50,552 nucleotides of DNA from Shigella phage vB_SflS-ISF001, in sequence record MG049919. One strand, given 5' to 3'. The translations under genes and the position numbers were made by a program. The notes beneath the pieces are model-generated. The model did no database searches, was not told the origin of the DNA, and saw only the letters and a program-made list of their open reading frames with translations. This document shows, in pieces, positions 37,289-50,009 of this stretch (its first letter is position 1; the number at the start of each line of letters is the position of its first letter).

Positions 37289-37344
37289 TTCGATTTTCTC
37301 TCTTCGTTGTCGATGAGGTGACTATATCAAATCACCCCACCGAC

Positions 37345-37364
37345 GTTTTAGCAATTAGTGCTAT
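37345..37364 (-). promoter_or_regulatory. early promoter cassette (20-mer + 22 bp + TATAGT in hairpin)
   Basis: Minus-strand ATAGCACTAATTGCTAAAAC; TATAGT within GGTGA/TCACC hairpin; leader CATCGACAACGAA. Confidence 0.6.
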
Positions 37365-38049: not shown

Positions 38050-38575
38050 CCACCCCGTGAGATTTTAAATGATCGTGAACGTTATCGCCATAGACAACTA
38101 CAGCGTAAGTGGTTATTGCAAGCGAGCGGAATAATGGAATAATTTGCGGTGAGTCATCCCAGGCCGCCAGAATGTTATCAATCCCGATCACGCGCACCGC
38201 CTCTTCTTTCATTGCTGTGTCTTTCCGGCTATCGGTGTGTGGTCGCATAATCAGGTAATCATATCGAGCGCCGTGATGCTTAAGCAACAACTCATATGCG
38301 TAACGCACCTCATCACTTCGCCCGGTCAAAATGATCACATGATAACCAGCGGAAAACGTAGAGTTCATCACACCGATCGTGCTTTGGATAGGGTTGTCAA
38401 ATATTGCCGCGCGGTTAAACTCGGACCAGATTTCAGTCAAGTGCAAATCTTTTGTCGGCAGCAAATGACGTCTACCGGATCCGTCATTAAGTGTCCCGTC
38501 AGAGTCAAAGATTGCGCCGCGGCGCAGACCGAGATACAGGTTGATTGTCTGGCCCCAAATGGTGATTTTATCCAT
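38042..38575 (-). CDS. HAD-superfamily phosphatase (polynucleotide 3'-phosphatase-like)
   Basis: HAD motif I FDSDGTL near N-terminus; CAGAGGAA RBS; promoter cassette upstream. Confidence 0.6.
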   Translation of the reverse strand: MDKITIWGQTINLYLGLRRGAIFDSDGTLNDGSGRRHLLPTKDLHLTEIWSEFNRAAIFDNPIQSTIGVMNSTFSAGYHVIILTGRSDEVRYAYELLLKHHGARYDYLIMRPHTDSRKDTAMKEEAVRVIGIDNILAAWDDSPQIIPLFRSLAITTYAVVVYGDNVHDHLKSHGVDE

Positions 38576-38640
38576 GATTTATTCCTCTGATTGGTTGCTT
38601 AACTCAACGAAGGGCATTCTAACAAATGCCCTTGAGCAAG

Positions 38641-38660
38641 TTTTAGCAATTCGTGCTATT
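38641..38660 (-). promoter_or_regulatory. early promoter cassette
   Basis: Minus-strand AATAGCACGAATTGCTAAAA; TAGAAT 22 bp downstream in AGGGCATT/AATGCCCT hairpin. Confidence 0.6.
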
Positions 38661-39105
38661 ACCAGCATCTGATCTCGTATTCAGCCGAATCGTCAAAATC
38701 ACTTCGGCAGTATGTGCCACTATAATTTTCCATCATTTTATCGATCAGGAAGTAGCGCAACTCACCGTTACAATAGAAGTATGAATCAGCAACGTTACGC
38801 GCCCAGTGCCCAGCCTCCTTCTTGCTCATCTTCCAGTGCTTCATTGCACTCTTCTTGAATGCACGCACGACGCGCTTGGGGATCTTAATGTGCTTGTACA
38901 CCTCGTTGCATCCGTAGGCCATATATTCGTTATCGCCAAGATTCCGCATAATGTACGGATTTAATTCTTTTGACGTAATCATCAGATCGCCACCGCCGTG
39001 ACGAGCATCATAAATACCTGCTGTCATGTAGTGACCTTTGAACATACCAATGCCGTGCAAAGTGTACTCAGCGTTAGGCGTTTCAATGCAAATTAAGTGT
39101 TTCAT
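38659..39105 (-). CDS. hypothetical protein (148 aa)
   Basis: Start at internal ATG with GAGGAAG RBS (track ORF to 39147); promoter cassette upstream. Confidence 0.45.
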   Translation of the reverse strand: MKHLICIETPNAEYTLHGIGMFKGHYMTAGIYDARHGGGDLMITSKELNPYIMRNLGDNEYMAYGCNEVYKHIKIPKRVVRAFKKSAMKHWKMSKKEAGHWARNVADSYFYCNGELRYFLIDKMMENYSGTYCRSDFDDSAEYEIRCW

Positions 39106-39160
39106 GAGTGCTTCCTCGTTTGTTGGTGTAGGGGAATCATAGCGCATTCCCCTTGATAGG

Positions 39161-39180
39161 TTTTAGCAATTCGTGCTATT
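39161..39180 (-). promoter_or_regulatory. early promoter cassette
   Basis: Minus-strand AATAGCACGAATTGCTAAAA; TATGAT 22 bp downstream in AGGGGAAT/ATTCCCCT hairpin. Confidence 0.6.
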
Positions 39181-39381
39181 CGTTATAATAGTGATGGAAA
39201 AATAATTTTTAAAGCACGTCACCCCTCGCGCTAAATCGACTTGTGGGAGCCTTGAAATTTCGTGGGCCAATTCCACTGCCGACACGTCAGATTTGTAGTA
39301 GAGTGCGATTCTGCAGGTATTTGGGGGCATTCCTTCCACTGCGTCAGGCGCTGCATCTTCTGCTGTCATGATAGTAGCCAT
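39163..39381 (-). CDS. hypothetical protein (72 aa)
   Basis: ORF track; C-terminal codons NSTNC-stop are encoded by the 20-mer motif. Confidence 0.4.
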   Translation of the reverse strand: MATIMTAEDAAPDAVEGMPPNTCRIALYYKSDVSAVELAHEISRLPQVDLARGVTCFKNYFSITIITNSTNC

Positions 39382-39496
39382 AAAACCCCCTTAAGAGATA
39401 ATGTCAGGACCAGGAGGCAGAATAGCAACTCCTGAAATGATGGCGGCTCGTTATTCCAGTTAGAAAAGTCTGGCATAGTGTTTTCTCCAAAAGAAA

Positions 39497-39532
39497 GGGG
39501 AACCGCTCAGAGTCGATTCCCCGTTAAAATTA
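39497..39532 (-). terminator. terminator-like hairpin after gene 39530-40168
   Basis: GGGGAA...TTCCCC stem with T-rich tail on minus strand. Confidence 0.4.
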
Positions 39533-40168
39533 CATGATGAACATCAGCGAAATCGAAGCGACCAGGAGAACAAGAGCGATAGCTAGGCCAGACAAGTCTG
39601 CTTTCTCTTCAAACTTCATTGCTGGCTTGCGGTCAACATTAATAGGCTTGACGTTGCTAATCTTGCTGGTGTTGATCTTGCCAATGACGCGGGAGGAGCG
39701 CTTGCGGTTCTTGCCGAACGTTGCGAACTTAGTGCCTGCACTGTTCCAACGAAGTCCTTCGCCATTATGCGTTACGGTACCGATGCGGTGACGGCCCGTG
39801 TCGTGAGTAAGCGCTACAGTGTGCTTTGCCTGCTCAGTAGGAACGTCGTAGTTTTTTCCAACACTAAATATTTTGGTGATATCGCTGATACATTCAAATT
39901 TCAAAAATTTTACCTCTTTATTATGCAGTTGTTTGATTGCTTCCATTACGTCTCTAAATATAACACCATCCACGATTCGATGGAAGATATATTTTGAACT
40001 ACCGCAATACGGCTGGAAAATTTCCTGGTTCTCGTGAGGACGGATGATGTTAACGTTGCTACCGTGCTCATCCACGACAACGAAGCTCTCGTCATTGACG
40101 TGAGCGCCTTCGTAGATTTTTCCCCACTTATAGCCCGATCCGTTACTTGATACGCATTCAAATTTCAT
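39530..40168 (-). CDS. tail-anchored membrane protein (212 aa)
   Basis: C-terminal TM LSGLAIALVLLVASISLMFIM; internal KFEC repeat; terminator downstream. Confidence 0.45.
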   Translation of the reverse strand: MKFECVSSNGSGYKWGKIYEGAHVNDESFVVVDEHGSNVNIIRPHENQEIFQPYCGSSKYIFHRIVDGVIFRDVMEAIKQLHNKEVKFLKFECISDITKIFSVGKNYDVPTEQAKHTVALTHDTGRHRIGTVTHNGEGLRWNSAGTKFATFGKNRKRSSRVIGKINTSKISNVKPINVDRKPAMKFEEKADLSGLAIALVLLVASISLMFIM

Positions 40169-40172
40169 TTTT

Positions 40173-40460
40173 CTATGGTCTAACCTTCCTATAAGGCATG
40201 ATTGATAACATCACGAATTGCGTGAAGTCGCATTCCTGATCGTCATTCCCGCGATTGATGTATGGAGTCTCGTCTGTAACATCGCATACCCTGGCGTGAA
40301 CTTCCCACCCGCTAAACTCACCCCGATGGAACTCTCGTAGCTGCAAGATATCGCCAATGTGGAAGTTGCGGTCATTGTTGCGGAACTCTGCCGTTATGGT
40401 TCCCTTCTTTACTCCAATGAAAGGTACCGGGTTAATTTTTAACTTATGACTCTTGCTCAT
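40173..40460 (-). CDS. ASCH/PUA-like domain protein (95 aa)
   Basis: GVKKGTITAEFR...GDILQLRE resembles ASCH-type fold signature; promoter cassette upstream. Confidence 0.4.
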   Translation of the reverse strand: MSKSHKLKINPVPFIGVKKGTITAEFRNNDRNFHIGDILQLREFHRGEFSGWEVHARVCDVTDETPYINRGNDDQECDFTQFVMLSIMPYRKVRP

Positions 40461-40523
40461 GATGCCTCACTGATTGGTTGCCATTCTTCAATAAGGCCAC
40501 TATATCAAATGGCCTTGCGGAAG

Positions 40524-40541
40524 GTTTAGCAATTCGTGCTA
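40524..40541 (-). promoter_or_regulatory. early promoter cassette
   Basis: Minus-strand ATAGCACGAATTGCTAAA; TATAGT 22 bp downstream in GGCCA/TGGCC hairpin. Confidence 0.6.
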
Positions 40542-40687
40542 TCGTTTAACGCACATAGTTTTTACTTCTTGTCCGAACGGTTTGTTTTCTGCAATCACCT
40601 CCCGACCTCTTTCGCATCGTTGCTGACTTTCCATGTATACGTGATCCGGCCCGGTGCTCATCAAGATAATCAAGACCCATGCAGCCA

Positions 40688-41194
40688 TTATTTCACCTGA
40701 TAGGGGACGAGCGTTCCGCGCGTAGTGCTGATTACACCTGATACGGTCTTGTTCTTGAAGCCGCCGTGAAGCAATAGAATCCTGATGATATGGTCGTGCA
40801 CCTCAATAGTTTTTGGTGTCGCGGTAGTCTCAATCCAAGAATGGCTGTTAATCTGGACACCTTTTTGCGTTGCGCTAAGTGGCACGTTCTCGATCTGAGT
40901 ACACTGTAGCGATGGCTTGATTTCTAGCTTTCCAGCTTTGAATATTGAGCCTTCAATCTTCCAGCTATCATACAAGCTGTAAGTATTCTGATTGACGCTC
41001 ATATTGTAGTAGTAGTCCTTATCTGGTGAATTTTCTTTATTCACTCCGTTATGTCTGGCAATAAACGACTCCAGCATAAGCTGCGATACCTCATCAGTGG
41101 CGCACGTTCCCTTATCATCACTGGTGAACGTAATTACACCACATCCCATGCTGATAAATTTGATCGGGAATATGACTTCTTCTCGTTTCAACAT
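40688..41194 (-). CDS. hypothetical protein (168 aa)
   Basis: ORF track; AAGAGGAA RBS; promoter cassette upstream. Confidence 0.5.
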   Translation of the reverse strand: MLKREEVIFPIKFISMGCGVITFTSDDKGTCATDEVSQLMLESFIARHNGVNKENSPDKDYYYNMSVNQNTYSLYDSWKIEGSIFKAGKLEIKPSLQCTQIENVPLSATQKGVQINSHSWIETTATPKTIEVHDHIIRILLLHGGFKNKTVSGVISTTRGTLVPYQVK

Positions 41195-41249
41195 AATGAT
41201 TTCCTCTTAGTGGTTGATATGGGGATTGTACCAGTCAGGCCAAATCCCC

Positions 41250-41269
41250 TTTTAACAATTCGTGCTTAG
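41250..41269 (-). promoter_or_regulatory. early promoter cassette
   Basis: Minus-strand CTAAGCACGAATTGTTAAAA; TACAAT 22 bp downstream in GGGGATT/AATCCCC hairpin; upstream gene stop TAA embedded. Confidence 0.6.
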
Positions 41270-41754
41270 TAAACCAACTCGCACTCAATATCGAACGGCT
41301 CGCCGTTCCAGACGAAGAAGCAAAGTGCCTCTATATTCATCCCGCCGATAAATCCAACGGCTTTCAACTGCTCATCGTTAACGTATGCCAGGTTGCTAGT
41401 AATTCTTTCAAAGTCAACGATAACCGGGAACGTGGGATTCTCATACTCCCAGCGCATCGGGTAGCCGCCATTACTGAGAAGTCGAACCTTGGGCGGCTTA
41501 GGATTTGCTTGGACTTCCCATTCAAAGAACGACATCGTTCCGTCATTCTCGTTTTTGTCAGCCGGACCAAATACATGGCTAACCGAAAGTCCATAGTCCA
41601 GATCGTACACGCCAGCAAAAACCAGATCGTCAACCTTAACGCGGTAGCCTGTAGTGCTGGAATCACACTTCACCGCATCAACCACGATAGGGTCAGCTTC
41701 CAGGTCGCGAGTAAAGCCTTTGTAACCGCCAGTGCACAGTAATTTAATTTTCAT
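41266..41754 (-). CDS. hypothetical protein (162 aa)
   Basis: ORF track; GAGGA RBS; promoter cassette upstream; stop codon embedded in next 20-mer. Confidence 0.5.
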   Translation of the reverse strand: MKIKLLCTGGYKGFTRDLEADPIVVDAVKCDSSTTGYRVKVDDLVFAGVYDLDYGLSVSHVFGPADKNENDGTMSFFEWEVQANPKPPKVRLLSNGGYPMRWEYENPTFPVIVDFERITSNLAYVNDEQLKAVGFIGGMNIEALCFFVWNGEPFDIECELVY

Positions 41755-41809
41755 GTTATCGTCCTCGTTCGTTGTCGATGTGGTTACTATATCGCAACCA
41801 CATGATCGC

Positions 41810-41831
41810 GTTTTAACAAAAAGTGCTATTC
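41810..41831 (-). promoter_or_regulatory. early promoter cassette
   Basis: Minus-strand ATAGCACTTTTTGTTAAAAC; TATAGT in GTGGTT/AACCAC hairpin; leader CATCGACAACGAA. Confidence 0.6.
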
Positions 41832-42017
41832 TTTAATTTCGAAGCAAAGCGTATCTTCATCGAATTCCCAGGGATCGCCATTATCATCAAGCAATGAGAT
41901 GTTACCGAAGCTGGTTAGCGAACGGTTATAAGGCTTGTCGACAGTATTCCAGTCCTTTACTTCCTCATCTTTGCTACCAAAGAATACTGCAATCATTTGG
42001 TGCATAAAATCAGCCAT
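41826..42017 (-). CDS. small acidic protein (63 aa)
   Basis: ORF track; AGGA RBS; hairpin upstream. Confidence 0.4.
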   Translation of the reverse strand: MADFMHQMIAVFFGSKDEEVKDWNTVDKPYNRSLTSFGNISLLDDNGDPWEFDEDTLCFEIKE

Positions 42018-42026
42018 TTTTAAATC

Positions 42027-42200
42027 CTATTCGCAAGTGATCTCATTTGATGAGATTGGTAGCTTAACAAAGCCAACCATCACTTTCGTAGTAACCTGGC
42101 TGGGGGTCTTGTGACAGCTATCAGTGACCTCTCCGCAGCCTGATTCTATCAGGATAGCCAGAGCGACCGACACCATCATGCAAATCTTTATTCGCATCAT
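42027..42200 (-). CDS. small exported/lipoprotein-like protein (57 aa)
   Basis: Start at internal Met of ORF 42027-42284; N-terminal hydrophobic segment ending ESGC (non-canonical lipobox). Confidence 0.35.
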   Translation of the reverse strand: MMRIKICMMVSVALAILIESGCGEVTDSCHKTPSQVTTKVMVGFVKLPISSNEITCE

Positions 42201-42307
42201 TCGAACGCCCCAGCACACAAGAGCAACATTACCACGATGCCAACCATGACGTGACCCATGCAGAAGAACCAGACGGCAGACCATAAAGCAATTGTATTGA
42301 AGTTCAT
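42197..42307 (-). CDS. small membrane peptide (36 aa)
   Basis: Internal ATG of ORF 42197-42412 with AGGTG RBS; single TM WSAVWFFCMGHVMVGIVVMLLLCAGAF. Confidence 0.35.
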   Translation of the reverse strand: MNFNTIALWSAVWFFCMGHVMVGIVVMLLLCAGAFE

Positions 42308-42531
42308 TTTAGCACCTCGATCTTGTTGTTGGGGATTGAGTTCACTACGATCGCTTGCGAGTTTTCTCCCGTGATTCGTATGTAGAAGTTGCCAATCGCC
42401 GCCAAGAACCACTGACCGCGAAATTTCAAATAAATTCCGTGCTTTGCAGGCATAGCGTAGTGAGTGGATTTTGCCGGAATCATGTACCCGTTTACGTGGG
42501 TGAGTTTAGTCTGAAAATTGTAACGTGGCAT
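42304..42531 (-). CDS. hypothetical protein (75 aa)
   Basis: ORF track; GAGGAA RBS. Confidence 0.4.
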   Translation of the reverse strand: MPRYNFQTKLTHVNGYMIPAKSTHYAMPAKHGIYLKFRGQWFLAAIGNFYIRITGENSQAIVVNSIPNNKIEVLK

Positions 42532-42537
42532 AATTAT

Positions 42538-42768
42538 TTATTCCTCAATTAAGGTGCTGATATCATCTTTGCCCTGGAGCAGTGCATTCCAGTCTAGGAA
42601 GTTTGCAAGGTTTTCGCACCACACGGACTTTCCGTTATCTTCCTTGTAGGTTTTGTATCCACCCGGCACGGCTTTGACTGCAAAGCGGTGAACTATCGAT
42701 GTGATGAAAATAGCAAAGCGGTTGTTATTCCTTGAATCGATGGCTAGCTGGTTCTTGACGATTGACAT
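42538..42768 (-). CDS. hypothetical protein (76 aa)
   Basis: ORF track; AACCAATCAGAGGA leader and promoter cassette upstream. Confidence 0.5.
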   Translation of the reverse strand: MSIVKNQLAIDSRNNNRFAIFITSIVHRFAVKAVPGGYKTYKEDNGKSVWCENLANFLDWNALLQGKDDISTLIEE

Positions 42769-42829
42769 GGTTAATCCTCTGATTGGTATCTCGTTTCGAT
42801 GGGGTAACTATAGCAAGATGCCCCGATCC

Positions 42830-42851
42830 GGTTTTAACAATTCGTGCTATT
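42830..42851 (-). promoter_or_regulatory. early promoter cassette
   Basis: Minus-strand ATAGCACGAATTGTTAAAAC; TATAGT 22 bp downstream; leader ATCGAAACGAGA. Confidence 0.55.
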
Positions 42852-43317
42852 TAGTGAGATACTTTACGCCTGTTCCGGCAACCTCATTCCAGACATCCTC
42901 AAAGTGTACGCTATAGCAAGTTGCAGAACGCAGGCGTTCCTTCGACACAGTGCGCCACACCTTACGTCCCGAGTAACCAGTCAGTACTCGGATCCCTGGC
43001 AACAACGCACCCGACTTTCTCACCTTAATGGCAACAGCTGAACCAAGCCCGAACGACTCAAGGTCAACTGGGTCAATCATATCGCACATGCGGCGATCTT
43101 CGTTCTCGTCTGCCCATTCACAGCCATCTCTACACTTCATAACTTCAATAATACATACCAATTTCTCAGTTAGTGAGTTTGAACCATATGTGTCTATATC
43201 AATAACCGTGCAGTGACTGTACATATGGGAATGCGATCCGGTAAAATGCTCAAACGCGAAGAATGACATTTCATCATCAAGCACATCTTTAGCCAGAAAT
43301 ACGGTAATGGTTGTCAT
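42847..43317 (-). CDS. hypothetical Cys/His-rich protein (156 aa)
   Basis: Start at internal ATG overlapping upstream stop (track ORF to 43389). Confidence 0.45.
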   Translation of the reverse strand: MTTITVFLAKDVLDDEMSFFAFEHFTGSHSHMYSHCTVIDIDTYGSNSLTEKLVCIIEVMKCRDGCEWADENEDRRMCDMIDPVDLESFGLGSAVAIKVRKSGALLPGIRVLTGYSGRKVWRTVSKERLRSATCYSVHFEDVWNEVAGTGVKYLTK

Positions 43318-43319
43318 GA

Positions 43320-43514
43320 TTAAGCCTCTGCAAAGTAAGTGATAAAGCCTTTGAGAAAGTAGTCGCTTCCAACTCGCTCCACGACCCATGTCAGAGGCGA
43401 GTGATACGCAACCATATCCTCATGGTCGATCGTGATTTCGGTTCCTTTCTTGTACAGACCCTTCCCGTGAGTAGAGTCGCGCAGAACAACCACTACGTCA
43501 ATTTGCGTTTCCAT
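43320..43514 (-). CDS. hypothetical protein (64 aa)
   Basis: ORF track; GAGGAAACAAAG RBS; promoter cassette upstream. Confidence 0.5.
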   Translation of the reverse strand: METQIDVVVVLRDSTHGKGLYKKGTEITIDHEDMVAYHSPLTWVVERVGSDYFLKGFITYFAEA

Positions 43515-43569
43515 CTTTGTTTCCTCATTCGTTGTCGATGGGATAACTATACCAGGTTATCCCGATCCG

Positions 43570-43591
43570 GTTTTAACAAAAAGTGCTATTC
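43570..43591 (-). promoter_or_regulatory. early promoter cassette
   Basis: Minus-strand ATAGCACTTTTTGTTAAAAC; TATAGT in GGGATAAC/GTTATCCC hairpin; leader CATCGACAACGAA. Confidence 0.6.
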
Positions 43592-43915
43592 TACAATGAA
43601 CACGACGTCGGTGTTTTCGGACCCTTCCGGTTTCGTAATGTTCATAAGCTCACAGTGCGGAACCTCAAGGCTTTTCATCTTGAGGGTTATCTTGTACCCA
43701 TTCAAGATTTCGTGAATAAGTCTAAGAACCTTCTCTGACGCCTCTTTCTTGCTAAGACCCCTTACGTCGTACGTTGGGCCAATAGTATTAAGGTTTACTG
43801 AGATTAAAACTTTACCAGTCACGGCATCAGCTATCTTGTTGTTGTTCTCTTCCTGCTTCTCGCTATCCAGCGTTCGTCTATCCATCACCTTCGTATCAAA
43901 CATGTTAGTAAACAT
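43586..43915 (-). CDS. hypothetical protein (109 aa)
   Basis: ATG with AAGGGGG RBS at 7 nt (track ORF begins at GTG 43921). Confidence 0.45.
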   Translation of the reverse strand: MFTNMFDTKVMDRRTLDSEKQEENNNKIADAVTGKVLISVNLNTIGPTYDVRGLSKKEASEKVLRLIHEILNGYKITLKMKSLEVPHCELMNITKPEGSENTDVVFIVE

Positions 43916-43927
43916 AATCACTCCCCC

Positions 43928-44503
43928 TTACAGTCCGCACTTTTCTTTATGCGCACTCATCTGGCGAACCAGGTCGCGCACGGCACTTACAGTTATGTCG
44001 CCTTTCTCAATGTCATCATTATCAGGAACAAACCAGTCAAGGTAGTCAGCCGGGCTAACTCTTTTCCGGGTGAGGCGCTTCTTCACCGGAACCTCTTCGT
44101 CACTCACGGAAATAGTAACGACTCGCAACTTCTCATCGATCATGGTCACGCTCACCTTGACCCACTTGCCGATTTTGGAGAAGTGTCGCGATACGATCGG
44201 GGTGATTTCTGAGGATTTAAACTTCTCGATAATCTCTTCGGTCCGCCCAAGCAACCAGGACCCGGCGCACTCGACAACATCATAATCGTCGACGTCTGGC
44301 ATTGACTTCCTCACACAGGCCTCAGCCATCTGAGTAGCGTCGAATGTGAACTCAGTATTCACGCCATCACCATAAAGCTGATCGCAAGCGGCCCGGATAA
44401 CATCAGACACCTTAACCTCCTGGCGCTGCTCAACCGTTACCCCAGCCTTCTCGGAACCTGCCTGCATTGCTGCCTGAACCGCATCTGATTGGTAAGAACT
44501 CAT
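43928..44503 (-). CDS. hypothetical protein (191 aa), first gene of leftward early unit
   Basis: Start at internal ATG with AAGGAG RBS (track ORF to 44593); adjacent to control region B. Confidence 0.5.
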   Translation of the reverse strand: MSSYQSDAVQAAMQAGSEKAGVTVEQRQEVKVSDVIRAACDQLYGDGVNTEFTFDATQMAEACVRKSMPDVDDYDVVECAGSWLLGRTEEIIEKFKSSEITPIVSRHFSKIGKWVKVSVTMIDEKLRVVTISVSDEEVPVKKRLTRKRVSPADYLDWFVPDNDDIEKGDITVSAVRDLVRQMSAHKEKCGL

Positions 44504-44920
44504 AGGTTTCTCCTTAGTTTCAATATACACAATGATTAACGCGTAACAGCGCGTCTCTAATTGCAGTGTTACACGACGACCCGCCTGCGTCAAGGCTTGC
44601 AGGTCGATTTTAAGTGTGGTTAATCGTGTTAATCGTGTTAATCGCTTTCCCCATATAAATATGAGCCGATAAAACTACTGTATATATAAACATGAATACA
44701 ATAATCAGAGCATCCAACGATTAACATAGTAGACACGCTATACAACCATATTACAGATAATAGTATCTATATATATAAATAAAAAAAATACTTATATATT
44801 ATATATATACATATAGATATATGTATATTATAAGGCGTAATTTGGTGTAATTTTGTCTACTATTGAGATTCAGGCAAATTGTAGACAACTGTTAACACAC
44901 GGTCAAGTGTAACCGTAATC

Positions 44921-44940
44921 GATAGCACGTTTTGCTAAAA
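44921..44940 (+). promoter_or_regulatory. 20-mer motif copy inside control region B (no obvious -10 or gene)
   Basis: ATAGCACGTTTTGCTAAAAA; about 265 nt upstream of first rightward gene. Confidence 0.4.
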
Positions 44941-45125
44941 ATGGAGATAACCACCAGGCGAACCGGGTAACACCAGATCCTCCCTCTCACAATCATTGCA
45001 TTCTAAGCAACAAATAAACCAACTGTTGCACACCGTGCAATAATCACGTTTCATCATTCGTAATCAATAACAATCAAGGTTATTACACCTATTCCAGTAT
45101 TGATGGAATAATGAGCAATTATTGG

Positions 45126-45145
45126 AATAGCATTTTTTGCTAACG
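45126..45145 (+). promoter_or_regulatory. early promoter cassette for rightward unit
   Basis: ATAGCATTTTTTGCTAACG; tandem GGTCGGGTA x2 then GTATAG 22 bp downstream; leader AACCAATCAGAAGAGGAAG. Confidence 0.55.
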
Positions 45146-45205
45146 ACTCGGTCGGGTAGGTCGGGTATAGTCCGGCCCATAAACCAATCAGAAGAGGAAG
45201 CAACA

Positions 45206-45910
45206 ATGAAATTAATCTGGTCACTATACGACGGTTCTGGTCTTGCAAATCTTGAGCTAGCAAAGCAAGGCCATAAGGTGATGTGCTTCAACTGGGACGG
45301 AGCCGATCACGGAGTTTACGCAAAGTACAACGCCAGGGTTGAGCGTCATAACATTGAGTATGTGAACGTCTTTATTAATGAGAAGTTCGAACGTGATGCT
45401 ACCGCGCCTGTGTATGGCAAGCCTGATTTAATCAGGGCATTTCCTCAATGCACTGACCTGGCTGTTAGTGGCGCTGGTCACTTCGTAAGAAAGCGTGAGC
45501 GAGATCCGTTATTCCAGGAGAAGGCTGTTGCTACCGCCGGGATTGCTGCGAATATTGGCGACTCTCTTGGCGTGACTTACATATTTGAGAATCCGGTGAG
45601 TGTCCTGTCATCTGCCTGGAGAAAACCAAATCACTCCTTCAACCCCTGGGAGTATGGCGGCTATCTTCCTGAGAATGACGCACACCCCAAGTTCCCTATG
45701 TATATTGCGCCGCGCGATCGTTATCCGAAGAAAACTTGTCTTTGGACCTCGGACGATTTTGTCACACCGGAGAAAAAAAAAGTAAGCCTGCCTGACGGGT
45801 ACTCTACGCATCACAGCAAGCAGGGCAGCAAGTCGGTAAAGACGAAGCTGATACGATCCCTGTCGCAGCGTGGATTTTTCCCGGCGATCGCAAATAGCAC
45901 TTTTTGTTAA
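45206..45910 (+). CDS. putative DNA methyltransferase (weak C5-cytosine-like motifs)
   Basis: LYDGSG (motif I-like), FPQCTDLAVSGAG (PC-motif-like), IFENPV (ENV-like); ATG with AGAGGAAG RBS (track ORF from 45137); assignment tentative. Confidence 0.4.
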   Translation: MKLIWSLYDGSGLANLELAKQGHKVMCFNWDGADHGVYAKYNARVERHNIEYVNVFINEKFERDATAPVYGKPDLIRAFPQCTDLAVSGAGHFVRKRERDPLFQEKAVATAGIAANIGDSLGVTYIFENPVSVLSSAWRKPNHSFNPWEYGGYLPENDAHPKFPMYIAPRDRYPKKTCLWTSDDFVTPEKKKVSLPDGYSTHHSKQGSKSVKTKLIRSLSQRGFFPAIANSTFC

Positions 45911-45913
45911 AAC
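45894..45913 (+). promoter_or_regulatory. early promoter cassette
   Basis: ATAGCACTTTTTGTTAAAAC overlapping last codons and stop of methyltransferase-like gene; CATAAT 22 bp downstream. Confidence 0.55.
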
Positions 45914-45970
45914 TCGATCGGTGCGATTTGGCATAATTACCTCATCGAAACGAGATTGAGGAAAAACAAA

Positions 45971-46156
45971 ATGGCACGTCGCATCACTAATGACCTTAAA
46001 GTTCTGAACAAAGTTAACGTAGTTATTATCCAGGTTATTTGGGGATACAACGAAGTGTCAGTAAAGCAGAAGCTAGAGGCTCCTTATGACTTGGCTGTCA
46101 AGGCAATGCCTTCCGACGATCGCAATTTCATTGCAAACTATGTAGCATTCTTCTAA
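45971..46156 (+). CDS. hypothetical protein (61 aa)
   Basis: ATG with GAGGAAAAA RBS (track ORF from TTG 45956); promoter cassette upstream. Confidence 0.45.
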   Translation: MARRITNDLKVLNKVNVVIIQVIWGYNEVSVKQKLEAPYDLAVKAMPSDDRNFIANYVAFF

Positions 46157-46171
46157 TTAACGGGCTAACAA

Positions 46172-46357
46172 ATGAAAACGAAATTAGTGAACAAATCAGA
46201 AATCAAGAACGGCGATACTCTGATTGTCAACGGAGAGTTAAGGACGGTTGATAAGCAGTCAATAGTCAGAGATGAATTTTTGGGTCTGTTGTTGTTCGCC
46301 GACTCATATTGCCTAGGATACTTAAAAGTCGAGCTTGTTGTGGATGTAAAATTCTAA
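46172..46357 (+). CDS. hypothetical protein (61 aa)
   Basis: ORF track; stop immediately followed by 20-mer motif. Confidence 0.4.
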   Translation: MKTKLVNKSEIKNGDTLIVNGELRTVDKQSIVRDEFLGLLLFADSYCLGYLKVELVVDVKF

Positions 46358-46377
46358 ATAGCACTTTTTGTTAAAAC
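46358..46377 (+). promoter_or_regulatory. early promoter cassette
   Basis: ATAGCACTTTTTGTTAAAAC directly after stop codon; TATAAC 22 bp downstream; leader AACCAATCAGGAG. Confidence 0.55.
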
Positions 46378-46432
46378 ACGCCCGGTTAATCAGGGTATAA
46401 CTCCAACATAAACCAATCAGGAGAATGACTAG

Positions 46433-46813
46433 ATGACAGATTCAAATCTTCGGGCAGCAATTGACCGCGCAAATGACAAGCTATTCACAGATGAGTTTTG
46501 CAATCGCCTGCTGGGCGGGATAATGCACCCCAGCAACCGGGTTGTTATCACGCAACGCGATACCGGGATCAGTATCACGGATATCAATACCATTGAAGAG
46601 CATAAAAGCATGATTTCTTATATCTTGCGTTACGACGGATCGGTTGAGTTCGGAAAGCTGGACGGTGACGAGAAGGAGGCTGTCATTGACTTCCTTCTCG
46701 AAAACGTGAGTCTCGTGTTCGAACAGCGACTGGATTACCCAACGACTCGTTGGGATTGCGACATGATGGACGCAAACAACCGTATCCCTGAAATCCTGGA
46801 GGAAAGATTATGA
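46433..46813 (+). CDS. hypothetical protein (126 aa)
   Basis: ORF track; AACCAATCAGGAG leader; promoter cassette upstream. Confidence 0.5.
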   Translation: MTDSNLRAAIDRANDKLFTDEFCNRLLGGIMHPSNRVVITQRDTGISITDINTIEEHKSMISYILRYDGSVEFGKLDGDEKEAVIDFLLENVSLVFEQRLDYPTTRWDCDMMDANNRIPEILEERL

Positions 46814-46983
46814 TCGTATATATCGTTATGGGCGGCGAAACATATGAGGGTCAATATCGAGATACTGTTCACGTTGATTTTAAGAAGGCGAAGCAGTACA
46901 CAAACAGAAACAAGCAACAGATTCGCGGGGGATTTAGCATGTACGACTTAACGACGAATGTTGTGAAGGAAATTACCGAATAG
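46810..46983 (+). CDS. hypothetical small protein (57 aa)
   Basis: Not in ORF track; ATG overlapping upstream stop (ATGA), GGAGGAAAG RBS 6 nt upstream. Confidence 0.45.
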   Translation: MIVYIVMGGETYEGQYRDTVHVDFKKAKQYTNRNKQQIRGGFSMYDLTTNVVKEITE

Positions 46984-46998
46984 CACTTTTTGCTAAAC
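46979..46998 (+). promoter_or_regulatory. early promoter cassette
   Basis: ATAGCACTTTTTGCTAAACG (perfect TAGCA-N5-TGCTA); TATAGT in GGGATGACT/AGTCATCCC hairpin. Confidence 0.6.
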
Positions 46999-47054
46999 GC
47001 TCATCCGGGATGACTGGTATAGTCATCCCATCAACAGCAAGCGAGGAAAGAGTT

Positions 47055-47426
47055 ATGTTTAAGCATTTCACAGATCTGGACAACTCAGCCAGCTTAGCAA
47101 TCCTGACTGCCGAGAAAGAAAGCGAAGCGATCGAGTTCAACGAGCGCAAGACTTACAACACGCAAGAGAAGGTCGTGAGAGCACCTCTAACCGCCTCTTA
47201 TGGTGTGACTGATGCAATCGAGTGCGTTAACCTCGTAACGTGCGTGGTGGACCGTTCGGGCGTGTCTACTTTCGTCGATCCCGACACTGGAGAGAAAATC
47301 ATCCAGCTAAACAACCCATCTATGCGTACTGAGTTAGGCAATATTGCACTGTGGGGAGTTGCTTCCTATTCAATCACCGTCAACACATGTGTAGCGGATC
47401 GTGTTATGGAGGCATTGTATGAATGA
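47055..47426 (+). CDS. hypothetical protein (124 aa)
   Basis: ATG with GAGGAAAGAG RBS (track ORF from 47010); promoter cassette upstream. Confidence 0.5.
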   Translation: MFKHFTDLDNSASLAILTAEKESEAIEFNERKTYNTQEKVVRAPLTASYGVTDAIECVNLVTCVVDRSGVSTFVDPDTGEKIIQLNNPSMRTELGNIALWGVASYSITVNTCVADRVMEALYE

Positions 47427-47619
47427 TAATATTTACCGCGTAGTTGGCATCTCACGCATAACGCAATGGACTGTGATCACTTACATGGGTAGTAGCGCCA
47501 TTGAACGTACGGATGCCACCGAATTATTGAAGAACAACGAGGCAAATATGAACACGTTGCGCGTTCGACTTGAACGCCTCGAGCCTGTTATCAATGATGA
47601 AGCGCGAAAGCTATCCTGA
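47419..47619 (+). CDS. hypothetical protein (66 aa)
   Basis: ATG with GGAGG RBS overlapping upstream stop (track ORF from GTG 47401). Confidence 0.45.
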   Translation: MNDNIYRVVGISRITQWTVITYMGSSAIERTDATELLKNNEANMNTLRVRLERLEPVINDEARKLS

Positions 47620-47636
47620 CTGGTTAAGGGGGAGCA

Positions 47637-47957
47637 ATGAAACACACTTACAAAATCAGAACGAAGTACCCGAAGTTTAACGGAACCACGGATGCGGCAC
47701 TGAATAACGCCGCGGCAATTCACGAAAAAAAGATCACGGAGCCCGTGAAGGCGGTGGTAGGTAGATTCTACGGGATCAATGCCGACATTGCCGACAGCAA
47801 GCGACTGTTCAAATACGTTCCAGGTCTACCATATGGCAGGATGATTAGTATCAAGCATGAAAAAGTATTGGTTCGAATCGGATCCCTAAGCTATGATGAG
47901 TTCGATCATAAACTTTGTCTGCTGACGGCGTATCAAACTTGGGACGGTAAAAAATGA
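47637..47957 (+). CDS. hypothetical protein (106 aa)
   Basis: ORF track; AAGGGGGAG RBS. Confidence 0.5.
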   Translation: MKHTYKIRTKYPKFNGTTDAALNNAAAIHEKKITEPVKAVVGRFYGINADIADSKRLFKYVPGLPYGRMISIKHEKVLVRIGSLSYDEFDHKLCLLTAYQTWDGKK

Positions 47958-48097
47958 TTTATATTCACACTTTCTATACTGGCAAATTTAACAGCGTAAA
48001 AAATGTTCGCGTTTACGATAGCCACCAAACAGCAATGATGCAGAGAGTAGTTCTAGGCGGCACAATCAAAGAGTGCAAAGTAATTTCTGAGTACTGA
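47954..48097 (+). CDS. hypothetical small protein (47 aa)
   Basis: Not in ORF track; ATGA overlap with upstream stop; stop followed by 20-mer motif. Confidence 0.3.
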   Translation: MIYIHTFYTGKFNSVKNVRVYDSHQTAMMQRVVLGGTIKECKVISEY

Positions 48098-48116
48098 TAG
48101 CACGAATAGCTAAAGA
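48098..48116 (+). promoter_or_regulatory. early promoter cassette
   Basis: ATAGCACGAATAGCTAAAG; TATATT in GGGAGTA/TACTCCC hairpin. Confidence 0.55.
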
Positions 48117-48173
48117 CAATCAGCAGGGAGTAAGGTATATTACTCCCACACCAAACAAACAAAGGAATTAAAA

Positions 48174-48398
48174 ATGAGCATTAAAGTTGAGATTATCATC
48201 AAGCTCCTGAACGCGTTAGGCCGTGTAGTTATCAAATTGGATAAGTCTTCCGGTTTTATTTCAATGACGGTAACTAAGACTCGTAACGGTAATAACCTTA
48301 TCGGCACCACGCCAGGCTCCCGCTTAATAAATGCAACAGATGCTGATGCGCGCGCTACGCTTGAGGCTAACACAATTCACATTAATTCATGGAGTTAA
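48174..48398 (+). CDS. hypothetical protein (74 aa)
   Basis: ORF track; AAAGGAA RBS; promoter cassette upstream. Confidence 0.5.
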   Translation: MSIKVEIIIKLLNALGRVVIKLDKSSGFISMTVTKTRNGNNLIGTTPGSRLINATDADARATLEANTIHINSWS

Positions 48399-48401
48399 TT
48401 G

Positions 48402-48614
48402 ATGGAACGGGATAATTTCTCCACTCGTTATAAAGCCGCTCTTGATCGGGGGCTTAGTGCGGAATGGTGTATCAAGGTTGCATATAAAGAAATTACGCAA
48501 CACGTAGAGCTAGGGAATATGGATATGGACGCAGAAAGTGAATATAATCCCGACTCCGAGGTGCCAGACGATGATGTTGGTGATAATGACGACGACGATT
48601 ATATTCCCTGGTAA
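48402..48614 (+). CDS. small acidic protein with SSB-tail-like C-terminus (70 aa)
   Basis: ATG with GGAG RBS (track ORF from TTG 48399); C-terminus PDDDVGDNDDDDYIPW resembles SSB C-terminal DDDIPF. Confidence 0.5.
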   Translation: MERDNFSTRYKAALDRGLSAEWCIKVAYKEITQHVELGNMDMDAESEYNPDSEVPDDDVGDNDDDDYIPW

Positions 48615-48631
48615 ATAGCACGATTTGTTAA
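48615..48631 (+). promoter_or_regulatory. early promoter cassette
   Basis: ATAGCACGATTTGTTAA; TAAAGT 22 bp downstream in AAGGTCA/TGACCTT hairpin; leader AACCAATCAGGAG. Confidence 0.55.
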
Positions 48632-48694
48632 TATTGCCGTAAGGTCATTTGATAAAGTGACCTTATTCAAGATAACCAATCAGGAGTTAACGAA

Positions 48695-49057
48695 ATGAAA
48701 TCCATCAAACTGAAATGCACTTACGCAAATAAAAACTTACCATTTGAAGTAAACAACCTATACAAGGGTCGTGAGCGCTATGATGGCACTCGCGAAGTAA
48801 AATTAAAATGCGGCAAGTATTTAAAACTTGAAAAGCATGATGTTTTACAGATTCACGGATCTGATGAAATCTTCTTCGCGAAGTTCTTTGAGTGGACACG
48901 GAAGACGCTCAAGTGTACCGGGCTTGACCATCGCAACCCAATGAAAAAATCATTCAAAGTTGGCAAGCGTTACCAGGTTGAAAGCGGTCGCGCTCTCGGT
49001 GGCGTAGCTGGTTACATCTTTGATGAAGATGGTTGTCGCTCGCCCCTATTTATCTAA
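48695..49057 (+). CDS. hypothetical protein (120 aa)
   Basis: ORF track; AACCAATCAGGAG leader; promoter cassette upstream. Confidence 0.5.
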   Translation: MKSIKLKCTYANKNLPFEVNNLYKGRERYDGTREVKLKCGKYLKLEKHDVLQIHGSDEIFFAKFFEWTRKTLKCTGLDHRNPMKKSFKVGKRYQVESGRALGGVAGYIFDEDGCRSPLFI

Positions 49058-49114
49058 GAGGTTGGTTTTAGTATCGGAGACGGCACAACCTTTGAGGCCA
49101 AATACTTATAACCA

Positions 49115-49133
49115 ATAGCACTTTTTGCAAAAC
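49115..49133 (+). promoter_or_regulatory. early promoter cassette
   Basis: ATAGCACTTTTTGCAAAAC; TATCAT 22 bp downstream in GGCGGTGTA/TACACCGTC hairpin. Confidence 0.55.
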
Positions 49134-49187
49134 GCGTGTACCATTGGCGGTGTATCATTTACACCGTCAACTAAGGAGTTTATTGTG

Positions 49188-50009
49188 ATGTTTAATATTA
49201 AGCCAAAACTGTTTTACCAACAGATTATTGAGATCGCCAATAGCACTGGAGTTAATCCGGTGGCGATCGCAATTCGTGAAAACAGCTATGGTGACTCAGT
49301 TTCATTTTGGCAAGATCCGATCGATATCAATAGCGGCAACGATAAGTTTCCTCTGATTTCGTTAGGTGGCGATAACCTGGTATTCGAATATGCAAAAGCA
49401 AAGGCCGAGTCTGTACAGTTCCCTGTTTCGTCTGCGTACGCTCATTTCATTGGGTGCATCTCAGCCGCGATGCTCGGGAAGTTTTGGGTGCAATATCACG
49501 GAGAAGAGCAACCTACCGCTCTTTACATGGTAATCAGCCAGCCACCTTCAACAGGTAAATCTGCGATTAACTCCGCAGCGATTACGCCTATGCGCGCAGA
49601 GATTCAGCGACTGAATGAAGAGCGAAAAAAGGAACGTATCCGTTTAACCAGTCAGCTACGTCAGGTCGAGAAGGAAATTAAAAACGACCCGAAGGGTAAC
49701 ACGACGGCGGCGCTGTACGAGGACAAAGAAAAACTGGAAGAAAAGATCAAGAAGATGGCTGATATTGTTTTCGCGGTATCAGATCCTACACCTGAAGGTC
49801 TTGCGAAGGTGGCGGCTGTTCAAGGTCACTTCTCAGTAATCTCTGATGAGGCGACAGCAATCAATACATTGCTCGGACTGAATTATGGCGGTTCTGATAA
49901 GAAATCAAACAGCGAACTTATCCTTAAGGCGTGGGATAAAAACCATATGGAGGTCGCGCGTTCAAACCAAGACAACAACTTACTTCTATCCCCGAACGGT
50001 TCGATCTAG
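49188..50009 (+). CDS. hypothetical protein with degenerate P-loop-like segment
   Basis: ATG with AAGGAG RBS (track ORF from 49125); QPPSTGKSA resembles a degenerate Walker A; coiled-coil Lys/Glu-rich middle. Confidence 0.5.
   Translation: MFNIKPKLFYQQIIEIANSTGVNPVAIAIRENSYGDSVSFWQDPIDINSGNDKFPLISLGGDNLVFEYAKAKAESVQFPVSSAYAHFIGCISAAMLGKFWVQYHGEEQPTALYMVISQPPSTGKSAINSAAITPMRAEIQRLNEERKKERIRLTSQLRQVEKEIKNDPKGNTTAALYEDKEKLEEKIKKMADIVFAVSDPTPEGLAKVAAVQGHFSVISDEATAINTLLGLNYGGSDKKSNSELILKAWDKNHMEVARSNQDNNLLLSPNGSI

Follow-up and report, generated by a model that had tools for sequence, protein, structure and literature searches.

Promoter-early stem-loops (PeSLs) have been described in T4-like myoviruses (Arbiol, Comeau and Krisch 2010, PMC2839356; Comeau et al. 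2014, PMC4122927). They are composite intergenic repeats that flank ORFans; each opens with the codon that terminates the preceding gene, carries a promoter and a GGGG...CCCC stem-loop between an upstream box and the -10 element or over the -10, and closes with a Shine-Dalgarno sequence (SD) and an ATG. Indels and replacements between close relatives cross over inside the repeat. The window analyzed here, a 50,552-nt stretch from Shigella phage ISF001 (a T1-like Tunavirus; MG049919), contains an element with the same traits, its promoter being predicted; it is the T1-like counterpart of the PeSL cassettes. It differs in belonging to the Drexlerviridae (a 50-kb siphovirus) rather than to a T4-like phage, in having a partly palindromic 20-mer fixed 22 nt from the -10 instead of an AT-rich tract and a canonical -35, and in its -10, in many cases an extended one with TGn. 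Experiments on PeSLs have demonstrated promoter and terminator activity as well as mini-circles; the promoter of the T1-like element is predicted from its sequence. This agreement with knowledge from T4-like phages makes the result solid rather than surprising.

The repeat itself is already published: a 21-nt direct repeat of phage TLS, aaATAGCACnnnTTGnTAAAA, also found in T1, Rtp, and Rogue1 (PMC11447400, 2024), is the same element as the ISF001 20-mer, with the same sequence, orientation with transcription, and distance of ~76 nt upstream of start codons. Its function was left open in that paper among a stoperator, an enhancer site, and an UP element; the embedded stops, the fixed extended -10, the covarying stem-loop, and a probable role in gene gain and loss go beyond it. 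The stoperators of mycobacteriophage L5 (Brown et al. 1997, as cited in PMC11447400) are likewise many short asymmetric copies oriented with transcription, between and at the ends of genes. They are bound by a temperate-phage repressor and block elongation, whereas T1-like phages are virulent and their site lies at a fixed distance from a -10. In integrons, too, small ORFs are lined up head to tail, and each is bordered by a repeated, partly palindromic site where gain and loss take place. Their cassettes, however, are promoterless, whereas each T1-like unit has its own predicted promoter; exchange in the T1-like phages resembles homologous recombination between repeats, and neither an integrase nor an attC-type site was found. 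Lambdoid morons and boundary ("linker") sequences also involve mosaic joints at gene boundaries, and accessory genes that sit between other genes and have a promoter and terminator of their own. Moron insertion is thought to be independent of conserved flanking repeats (discussion in PMC2839356), whereas the flanks in the T1-like phage are the repeat.

We consider it probable (roughly 0.68) that the early cassettes of this phage are separated by ~75-nt units, each comprising a stop, a hairpin, a putative promoter, and a ribosome-binding site, which serve as crossover points for gene gain and loss. The window contains 17 perfect copies of ATAGCACNNNNNGYTAA; allowing up to two mismatches, 33 copies are present against 7.0 +/- 2.6 expected, a count reached in none of 100 shuffles. 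The consensus is ATAGCAC-N5-GYTAA, or aaATAGCAC-N5-GYTAAAA for the fuller 20-mer. Every copy is co-oriented with the genes, on the minus strand up to 43589 and on the plus strand from 44922. The pattern, first described at positions 39161-48631, reaches to 37348 and 49131 and occurs genome-wide. Each copy heads a ~75-nt unit in the order 20-mer, stem-loop, -10 box, leader (CATCGAaACGA or AACCAATCAGGAG), SD, and ATG. About 25 near-identical units occur per genome, in direct orientation along each arm, and between them lie early transcription units, each made up of 1-5 translationally coupled ORFs. The preliminary description had envisaged modular promoter-leader-RBS-ORF cassettes; the modularity holds, but a cassette often comprises 2-5 coupled ORFs rather than one gene. 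The units of the left arm, with their predicted elements, are as follows:

37286..37366, minus strand: unit; 20-mer 37348-37364, stem-loop ~37309-37344, -10 TATAGT 37321-37326, ATG 37288; TAG 37361-37363 closes ORF 37361-37933
38573..38661, minus strand: unit, crossover site of indel A; 20-mer 38643-38659, stem-loop 38610-38633, -10 TAGAAT 38616-38621, leader AACCAATCAG, ATG 38575; TAA 38659-38661 closes ORF 38659-39105
39103..39181, minus strand: unit; 20-mer 39163-39179, stem-loop 39130-39153, -10 TATGAT, ATG 39105; motif TAA 39163-39165 closes ORF 39163-39381
40458..40544, minus strand: unit; 20-mer 40526-40542, stem-loop 40493-40516, TGaTATAGT, ATG 40460; TAG 40539-40541 closes ORF 40539-40688; insertions of 193-300 nt at its start-codon edge in 9 relatives
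41192..41268, minus strand: unit with degenerate 20-mer 41252-41268 (TAAGCAC...); TGgTACAAT, ATG 41194; motif TAA closes ORF 41266-41754
41752..41831, minus strand: unit; 20-mer 41813-41829, stem-loop 41778-41803, ATG 41754; TAG 41826-41828 closes ORF 41826-42017
42766..42852, minus strand: unit; 20-mer 42834-42850, stem 42801-42824, TGcTATAGT, ATG 42768; TAG 42847-42849 closes ORF 42847-43317; ADB-2 has an additional 308-nt ORF cassette here, with a motif copy on both sides
43512..43591, minus strand: unit; 20-mer 43573-43589, stem-loop 43540-43563 (GGGATAAC/GTTATCCC), TGgTATAGT, ATG 43514; TAG 43586-43588 closes ORF 43586-43915; most relatives lack this ORF or have another in its place

On the plus strand are an orphan copy and the units of the right arm:

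44922..44938, plus strand: orphan 20-mer in a divergent AT-rich intergenic region; no -10 at the fixed distance
45125..45208, plus strand: first right-arm unit; 20-mer 45127-45143, TATAGT 45165-45170, leader AACCAATCAG, ATG 45206 of a Dcm-like methylase; additional 130-190-nt ORFs at its start-codon edge in relatives
45892..45973, plus strand: unit; 20-mer 45894-45910, TGgCATAAT 45929-45937, ATG 45971; motif TAA closes the methylase ORF
46355..46435, plus strand: unit, crossover site of indels C and D; TAA 46355-46357 adjoins 20-mer 46358-46374, TATAAC 46396-46401, ATG 46433
46978..47057, plus strand: unit; 20-mer 46980-46996, its TAG 46981-46983 being the stop, stem-loop 47007-47029 (arms GGGATGACT/AGTCATCCC), TGgTATAGT, ATG 47055
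48095..48176, plus strand: unit; TGA 48095-48097 and 20-mer 48097-48113 overlap by 1 base, stem-loop 48126-48147, TATATT, ATG 48174
48612..48697, plus strand: unit; TAA 48612-48614 adjoins 20-mer 48615-48631, stem-loop 48639-48666, TGaTAAAGT, leader AACCAATCAGGAG, ATG 48695
49113..49190, plus strand: unit; 20-mer 49115-49131 (1 mismatch), stem-loop 49144-49170; helicase-like gene starting at 49185/49188

In the early region, 14 copies are preceded by an upstream ORF, and in 13 of them its stop codon lies inside or touches the motif (-2..+17), so that the embedded or abutting stops noted earlier are confirmed and prove more general. Two frames are closed by the motif, through TAG at position 2 and TAA at position 15, and any ORF entering them is thereby terminated; third-frame ORFs have their own TAA pressed against the motif. 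Across the window and 14 relatives, 80 stops are TAG at position 2, 43 are TAA at position 15, 34 overlap, and 25 abut the motif, with ~89% at -5..+17; at 40 IMG/VR loci, 131 of 167 upstream ORFs terminate at -8..+17. As previously claimed, the motif encodes the ends of ORF 39163-39381 on the minus strand (SITIITNSTNC-stop, TAA being motif positions 15-17) and ORF 45206-45910 on the plus strand (...ANSTFC-stop). The stop at 41266 is a TAA standing where a degenerate copy (2 mismatches) would otherwise begin with ATA, those at 46357 and 48614 are TAA codons directly adjoining the motif, and that at 46983 is the TAG within aTAGcac. Position 48097 had also been listed as a motif TAA or TAG; it is the end of TGA 48095-48097, and only its final A is common to the motif. 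Missed at first were the TAG-in-motif stops at 37361, 40539, 41826, 42847, and 43586, the TAA overlapping the motif at 38659, and a regulator gene (8048-8497) whose last five codons and stop (C-terminus NSIFS-stop) are supplied by copy 8484-8500.

The -10 hexamer lies exactly 22 nt past TTGYTA, and TGn precedes it in about half of the units. A set of 549 distinct units was drawn from 151 sequences; their best -10-like hexamer begins at motif position 39 in 364 cases and at position 38 or 40 in 67; TGn stands ahead of 173 of the 364 position-39 hexamers, against ~6% expected. No canonical -35 was found in the units, and the sites are missed by a standard sigma-70 scan. This geometry suggests that the unit is a promoter of the extended -10 type. 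Host sigma-70 RNA polymerase would start ~7 nt past the -10, at motif position 51, so that the stem-loop would lie at -25..-2. Only read-through RNA from upstream would then contain it, and there it could act as an attenuator, terminator, or 3' stabilizer. The 20-mer would be an upstream promoter element or an operator; the copies preceding terS and the tail-tip gene sit downstream of a -10, and this is at odds with a simple upstream-element role.

Two further loci bear on binding and exchange:

8048..8497, plus strand: Cro/YdaS-like HTH "transcriptional regulator", candidate binder of TAGCA-N5-TGCTA
11522..13656, minus strand: SSB, single-strand annealing ("recombination") protein, and RecE-like exonuclease VIII

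The 20-mer may be read as primarily a protein-binding site resembling the L5 stoperators, recognized by this regulator or by a host factor such as Lrp, with the embedded stops and crossovers being by-products of a compact genome and repeated sequence. The core TAGCA-N5-TGCTA is palindromic, with half-sites 10 bp apart, and is centered near -42 in rigid spacing to the -10. Copies 18873 and 35533 lie just downstream of a -10, and another sits in the leader of the regulator gene; the reverse copy 8019-8035 lies 13 nt ahead of the ATG of that gene. The regulator belongs to phrog_2856 ("transcriptional regulator") and its homologs carry PF15943, but its own Pfam match falls below the curated cut-off. 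The half-sites also fit the E. coli Lrp consensus yAGhAwATTwTdCTr (quoted in PMC5554404), at 13 of 15 positions for TAGCACTTTTTGCTA, and the roles proposed in the TLS paper (PMC11447400) point the same way. Nevertheless, the site is asymmetric, its right half often being TGTTA and its C7 invariant, and binding accounts for neither the stem-loop nor the junction pattern. As a rival explanation we regard this as rather unlikely, although protein binding as such is compatible with crossover units.

Gene gain and loss were examined by comparing the window with 14 related Tunavirus genomes; the 15 genomes are related, and the events and counts below are not fully independent. Aligning T1-like relatives to locate indel breaks at the 20-mer gave a positive answer: breakpoints cluster at unit edges, with peaks at the motif 5' edge (-1..0) and at +44..+68, the start codon. 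Approximately 19 distinct simple indels were found, ~8 of them with both junctions in repeated units (chance for a single indel, ~6e-4). For five indels aligned base by base, the shorter genome has a single chimeric unit, whose left flank matches the first copy of the longer genome and whose right flank matches the second, with the switch within the shared 17-25 nt of the 20-mer. The alignment overlaps at joints (17-76 nt) are the expected residue of repeat-mediated exchange. Most of the variable genes are ORFans or DUFs, and three of the cassettes are:

38660..39150, minus strand: ORF 38659-39105 plus one unit; absent in phiD2-2, which has a single, chimeric unit joined within GTTTTAGCAATTCGTGCTATT
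41830..42790, minus strand: five-ORF cassette; absent in CLB_P3, which has a chimeric unit joined at the motif edge, with a 63-nt alignment overlap
46375..46958, plus strand: two-ORF cassette (46433-46813, 46810-46983); absent in phiD2-2 and IME18, with the junction within ATAGCACTTTTTG

On the evidence of these joints, the units have served as crossover points. Exchange between two units deletes, inserts, or swaps entire ORF cassettes, and every product keeps an intact stop, putative promoter, and ribosome site. It would proceed by homologous recombination across 17-75 nt of shared sequence, through the phage RecE-like exonuclease, annealing protein, and SSB, a system that could act on short homologies, or through host machinery. 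Two observations sit less easily with the overall reading: a homology of 17-25 nt is short, and in about half of the indels at least one end falls outside the repeated units.

Selection alone could also place breakpoints at gene boundaries, if recombination were illegitimate and random, only products with intact ORFs and promoters survived, and the motif were a bystander promoter. Several breaks do lie elsewhere, at junctions that lack the motif (42027, 43913-43927, 47407) or within genes (46485, 46857), and their joints show no homology; seven indels adjoin the start-codon edge of a unit rather than the motif. Jumps in identity are as large within genes as across motif junctions or larger, and the units are accordingly no general hotspots for allelic exchange between shared genes. 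Against selection alone, however, stand the five exact chimeras and the overlaps of 17-76 nt, and motif junctions are favored over motif-less ones that preserve ORFs equally well: gene-content switches occur at 35/196 versus 17/224 (Fisher p=0.0017), or, counted by junction, at 10/15 versus 3/20 (p=0.004). We therefore hold this explanation to be distinctly improbable, and the earlier proposal of cassette gain and loss by recombination at the shared motif is supported by the chimeric junctions and this excess.

The stem-loop is G+C-rich, typically GGGG...CCCC, and lies past the 20-mer, either ahead of the -10 or across it. In the window, the stem-loops occupy fixed positions 27-50 with folding z-scores of -3 to -7; in 195 units picked solely by -10 position, the mean z is -2.9, with 72% below -2, and sense folding is more stable than antisense (-11.1 vs -9.0 kcal/mol, Wilcoxon p=3e-14). 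That these hairpins are ordinary rho-independent terminators, as annotated in SA30RD and SA12KD, with the 20-mer as terminator context, is very hard to sustain: the WebGeSTer and TransTermHP calls in GenBank records land on motif hairpins, copy 8484 and several homologs in other phages have a stem followed by T6-8, and sense-strand G-U pairs (within stems, 102 cases of G-T stand against 32 of A-C) indicate an RNA-level role, but a stem-plus-T-tail scan of 36500-50552 called no motif-associated hairpin, most early hairpins being without a T tail, the 3' flanks are CATCGA or CACACC rather than U-rich, and the fixed-distance -10 and TGn are left unexplained. The stem itself covaries: in 32 sequences pre-selected for pairing, both sides change in 7 of 8 pairs, giving a covariation score of 0.75; shuffles score 0.31, none of the 500 attaining 0.75, and slid partners 0.13-0.22.

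Gene content of the early region differs among 15 genomes, and the homologous region of 14 Tunavirus genomes was compared with the window through chained BLAST alignments. The preliminary description had proposed that small early genes are gained and lost by recombination at a shared 20-mer (ATAGCAC-N5-GYTAA; positions are counted from its first base) and that related genomes should show breakpoints there. The alignment of relatives supports this interpretation, with indel joints lying in the motif. Relative to the motif, breakpoints formed two tight classes, one at -1 to 0 (the upstream stop) and one at +44 to +68 (the start codon). These two classes indicate that a unit of approximately 75 nt is the conserved linker, whereas the ORFs between units, here called cassettes, are the variable part. 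In five indels aligned base by base, the shorter genome contains one unit whose left and right flanks match different unit copies of the longer genome, and in all five the switch point lies inside the shared 17–25 nt of the 20-mer.

Indels aligned base by base between the window and related genomes
Event A, window 38660-39150: longer in the window, shorter in phiD2-2; ORF 38659-39105 plus one unit
Event B, window 41830-42790: longer in the window, shorter in CLB_P3; a five-ORF block
Event C, window 46375-46958: longer in the window, shorter in phiD2-2 and IME18; two ORFs
Event D, window unit at 46358: longer in pSf-2, shorter in the window; an extra gp74 cassette
Event E, window unit at 42834: longer in ADB-2, shorter in the window; an extra 308-nt cassette

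An all-against-all comparison yielded approximately 19 distinct simple indels. In about 8 of these, each end fell in a repeated unit and the alignments overlapped by 17–76 nt; among the others, 2 had one end at the motif edge, 7 were at the start-codon edge of the unit, and 2 lay elsewhere. The chance of both ends falling in a motif copy is approximately 6e-4 for a single indel. Gene-content switches occurred at 35/196 motif junctions compared with 17/224 motif-less gene junctions (p=0.0017) and 0/126 inside genes; counted by junction, switches were found at 10 of 15 motif and 3 of 20 motif-less junctions (p=0.004). In a mosaic-identity test on shared genes, the jump at motif junctions (0.057) was no larger than at motif-less junctions (0.069) or inside genes (0.073). 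Thus, the units matter for gene content and are not hotspots for allelic exchange. Behind the same unit, window 46433-46487 and locus L009 9704-9990 carry different ORFs with the first ~18 codons (~55 nt) in common, so the homology block for exchange can extend beyond the unit to include the start of the ORF. The phage gene set includes a RecE-like exonuclease, an annealing protein, and an SSB, and we infer that these could act on such short homologies.

The 20-mer is present in 17 perfect copies in the window, and 33 matches were found when up to two mismatches were allowed, compared with 7.0 expected from shuffles. As far as 43589 all copies lie on the minus strand, and from 44922 onwards all are on the plus strand, in agreement with the two divergent early gene arms. 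The genomes matching the 9.5-kb region are Tunavirus (T1-like, Drexlerviridae), the nearest in the phage collection being Shigella phage ISF002 (94.8% identity). The window repeat agrees with the 21-nt direct repeat aaATAGCACnnnTTGnTAAAA of T1 and TLS in consensus, in co-orientation with transcription, and in its position ~76 nt 5' of start codons. The 2024 paper on TLS described 21 transcription-oriented copies of aaATAGCACnnnTTGnTAAAA ~76 nt 5' of start codons, also recorded it for T1, Rtp, and Rogue1, and suggested stoperator, enhancer, and UP-element roles (PMC11447400). The repeat itself is therefore already published, in an account that makes no reference to embedded stops, to an extended -10 at a fixed distance, to a stem-loop, or to recombination.

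At several junctions, upstream genes had been described as ending in, or directly against, the next motif, and this was confirmed: the stop lies at -2 to +17 in 13 of the 14 early copies having an upstream ORF. Verified against the sequence and the ORF table, the endings NSTNC-stop (39163) and NSTFC-stop (45910) are encoded by the motif; the stop at 41266 is a TAA opening a degenerate copy, those at 46357 and 48614 are TAAs adjoining the motif, and that at 46983 is the TAG within aTAGcac. The sole wrong detail concerned 48097, taken for a motif TAA or TAG, which is actually a TGA with only its last A common to the motif. Further TAG-in-motif stops occur at 37361, 40539, 41826, 42847, and 43586, and the TAA at 38659 overlaps the motif. 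At copy 8484, the motif encodes the last five codons and stop (NSIFS-stop) of a regulator gene at 8048-8497. Two reading frames are closed by the motif, through TAG at position 2 and TAA at position 15, and ORFs in the third frame have their own TAA set directly against it. Across the window and 14 related loci, ~89% of upstream ORFs stop at -5 to +17 of the motif. In IMG/VR, 131/167 upstream ORFs stop at -8 to +17 (40 loci, each with at least three copies); only such loci were kept because the pattern scan also catches single chance matches in unrelated large phages. An IMG/VR scan with a conserved protein returned no loci beyond the same reference genomes.

Aligning all window copies on the motif revealed a fixed layout of ~75 nt. 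The 20-mer is followed, after a spacer of ~10 nt, by a stem-loop rich in G+C; next come a -10-like hexamer, frequently TATAGT or CATAAT, and a conserved leader whose sequence is CATCGAaACGA or AACCAATCAGGAG. The 3' end holds a Shine–Dalgarno (SD) sequence and start codon, the ATG lying 75–80 nt from the motif's first base. In 549 distinct units from 151 sequences, comprising the window, 14 GenBank relatives, and IMG/VR loci (T1, TLS, and Rtp included), the best -10-like hexamer starts at position 39 in 364 units, and in another 67 it starts at 38 or 40. A -10 at a fixed position thus occurs in 66–79% of units; of the 364 with the hexamer at position 39, 173 (48%) have TGn before it. This geometry is the signature of a predicted extended -10 promoter without a -35. 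A scan for canonical -35/-10 pairs detected 21 sites compared with 25.5 expected, showing no enrichment, no site at the units, and no canonical -35 within them, which is consistent with such a promoter. The sigma-54 and T4 MotA-box readings of the motif were rejected by inspection, the former for misfit spacing and a GC two bases off, the latter for a distance of 19–22 nt to the -10 instead of 11–13. TTGYTA was also rejected as a real -35; with the hexamer at position 39, the spacer is a constant 22 nt. Transcription would start 7 nt past the -10, at position 51; the 20-mer would then span -50 to -32, with its palindromic core TAGCA-N5-TGCTA centred near -42.

The stem-loop takes two placements. 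In most early copies, the stem pairs positions 27–34 with 43–50, and TGn and the -10 lie within the loop and 3' arm; in copies 725, 2507, and 4495, as well as many from other phages, the hairpin occupies the stretch separating the motif from the -10. A real structure is supported by several lines of folding and covariation analysis. Window copies have folding z-scores of -3 to -7. Among 195 units, each with a different arm sequence and selected solely because the -10 sits at position 39, the mean z-score was -2.9, with 72% below -2, and the sense strand folded more stably than the antisense (-11.1 vs -9.0 kcal/mol, p=3e-14). Stems contain 102 G-T compared with 32 A-C pairs, which argues for pairing within one sense strand, the simplest candidate being readthrough RNA from upstream. 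When 32 units were aligned without gaps, both sides changed in 7 of 8 stem pairs, and the covariation score was 0.75 compared with 0.31 for shuffled units and 0.13–0.22 with partners slid; this subset was pre-selected for pairing, which makes its percentage paired circular but not its covariation. Because the whole hairpin lies 5' of the predicted start, it would be missing from the unit's own transcript.

GenBank annotations of SA30RD and SA12KD label the motif-associated hairpins as rho-independent terminators. A terminator scan requiring a G+C-rich stem and a T-rich tail called no motif hairpin of the early region; most have no T tail, and a few copies, such as 8484, are exceptions with a T run. 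Units are probably mis- or under-annotated in deposited Tunavirus genomes. The SA30RD and SA12KD records mark only 1–2 sigma-70 promoters across the early region. No Rfam family matched anywhere in the window at gathering thresholds.

The palindromic core, with half-sites 10 bp apart, would suit a dimeric HTH protein. An HTH domain search of 20 early ORFs found none, and the only candidate regulator lies outside them, the Cro/YdaS-like 'transcriptional regulator' at 8048-8497. Its protein matches phrog_2856 (1e-67) and, below the cut-off, Pfam P22_Cro; PF15943 is present in some homologues. All 13 homologues found are on T1-like contigs, and co-occurrence with the motif is uninformative for this reason. 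The gene is bracketed by motif copies (8019-8500), and the layout around it suggests autoregulation of this candidate. A reverse copy, part of the divergent helicase unit, lies 13 nt ahead of its ATG, with a perfect TATAAT on the plus strand ~40 nt further 5'; a true terminator (9-bp stem and TTTTTTATTTT) lies 3' of copy 8484. With this candidate HTH protein, the 20-mer is also a putative L5-type stoperator, a site at which a bound phage repressor would block transcription. Host Lrp is another lead as a candidate binder: both half-sites fit the E. coli consensus yAGhAwATTwTdCTr as quoted in PMC5554404, TAGCACTTTTTGCTA matching 13/15 positions by inspection. The copies preceding terS (35533) and the tail-tip gene (18873) are located just 3' of a terminator and TGnTATAAT box, an operator or 5'-UTR position for which a pure upstream-element model does not account. 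A second promoter-like type is seen in the late region, at 18851-18935, 35490-35585, and 21040-21110, all on the minus strand. Here, TGTATAATG or TGCAATATG comes immediately after a strong intrinsic terminator (CCCGC...GCGGG and T7-8); the 20-mer lies only 4–15 nt further 3', and the tail-tip gene or terS follows with its SD and ATG. The 21066 copy retains just half of the motif.

The closest known system is the promoter-early stem-loop (PeSL) of T4-like phages. PeSLs are composite units that open with the upstream stop codon, contain a promoter, and close with SD and ATG; their stem-loop (GGGG...CCCC) lies between the promoter boxes or over the -10, they flank ORFans, and unit-to-unit recombination has been shown to give indels and mini-circles (PMC2839356, PMC4122927). 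PeSLs also act as promoters and terminators in reporter assays. Window units are likewise composite intergenic repeats opening with the upstream stop; they have a stable stem-loop in both placements (upstream box to -10, or over the -10) and end in a Shine–Dalgarno sequence and start codon. They flank ORFans in a plastic region, and indel or replacement joints lie inside the motif (the five aligned; ~8 of ~19 indels). The PeSL promoter is an early, sigma-70-like one with both -35 and -10 boxes; most window units have a -10-like hexamer at a fixed position, about half of these with TGn, and TTGYTA 22 nt away in place of a canonical -35. PeSLs also belong to T4-like myoviruses, whereas these units are from Tunavirus (Drexlerviridae) and would represent PeSL-like working in another sequence family. 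No paper linking PeSLs to T1-like phages was found in the literature searched. Integron arrays, by comparison, depend on the tyrosine recombinase IntI and attC sites; the window repeat is not attC-like, and no integrase was found in the annotation of a complete relative or in Pfam scans of early ORFs. Judged from its sequence, the element is the T1-like counterpart of a known type of mobile regulatory cassette, with an unusual promoter geometry lacking a -35.

A broader reading, to which we assign roughly one chance in five, is that T1-like phages possess a recombinase-free cassette system resembling integrons, in which a single multifunctional 20-mer acts as operator, stop adaptor, and crossover site. 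As an operator, it would allow a single regulator, the phage Cro/YdaS-like protein or host Lrp, to co-ordinate ~25 extended -10 promoters. As a frame-independent stop adaptor, it would make any ORF pluggable upstream. As a crossover site, it would release ORF-plus-unit circles that could carry accessory genes, including counter-defence genes, between co-infecting phages. 

The interpretation of the units as a T1-like counterpart of PeSLs offers a testable function for a repeat that was known from T1, TLS, and Rtp genomes as early as 2004 and had no explanation in 2024. It also shows that PeSL-mode shuffling of accessory genes is not restricted to T4-like phages. Known exchange points could aid in predicting or engineering gene content in Tunavirus therapy phages and the BASEL collection, and the units are compact, portable modules of predicted promoter and RBS.

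Small early ORFans are the usual place of anti-defence and host-takeover genes, and the variable cassettes hold such ORFans, one here being a homologue of the Gp54 'antiviral trigger' family. Among the 20 early ORFs scanned, 14 had no Pfam family, 4 matched DUFs only (one below the cut-off), and 1 belonged to the Gp54 family (ORF 43320-43514, minus strand; PF25180 'Phage antiviral trigger protein Gp54', 1.5e-27). Further cassette ORFs matched DUF7421, DUF7274, and DUF3850/ASCH ('RNA-binding protein', phrog_986).

Other features of the window were also recorded. The junction after ORF 39530-40168 has no 20-mer, and a canonical terminator (GGGGAATCGACTCTGAGCGGTTCCCC and TTTCTTTT) lies 3' of this ORF at 39497-39522 on the minus strand. 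ORFs 48695-49057 and 49125-50009 are both shorter than in relatives. The former has a nonsense change (GAA to TAA) relative to the 417-nt ISF002 gene, with clustered substitution patches nearby; the latter, helicase-like, stops at 50007-50009, and its homologues are 1569 nt. Both could be pseudogenes or sequence errors. The divergent intergenic region separating the early arms (44600-44900) has GTTAATCGT three times at 44619-44644 and, at 44764-44832, a long (TA)n/AT-rich tract that resembles an AT-rich piece at 13990-14019; the region may function as an origin or provide strong divergent promoters.
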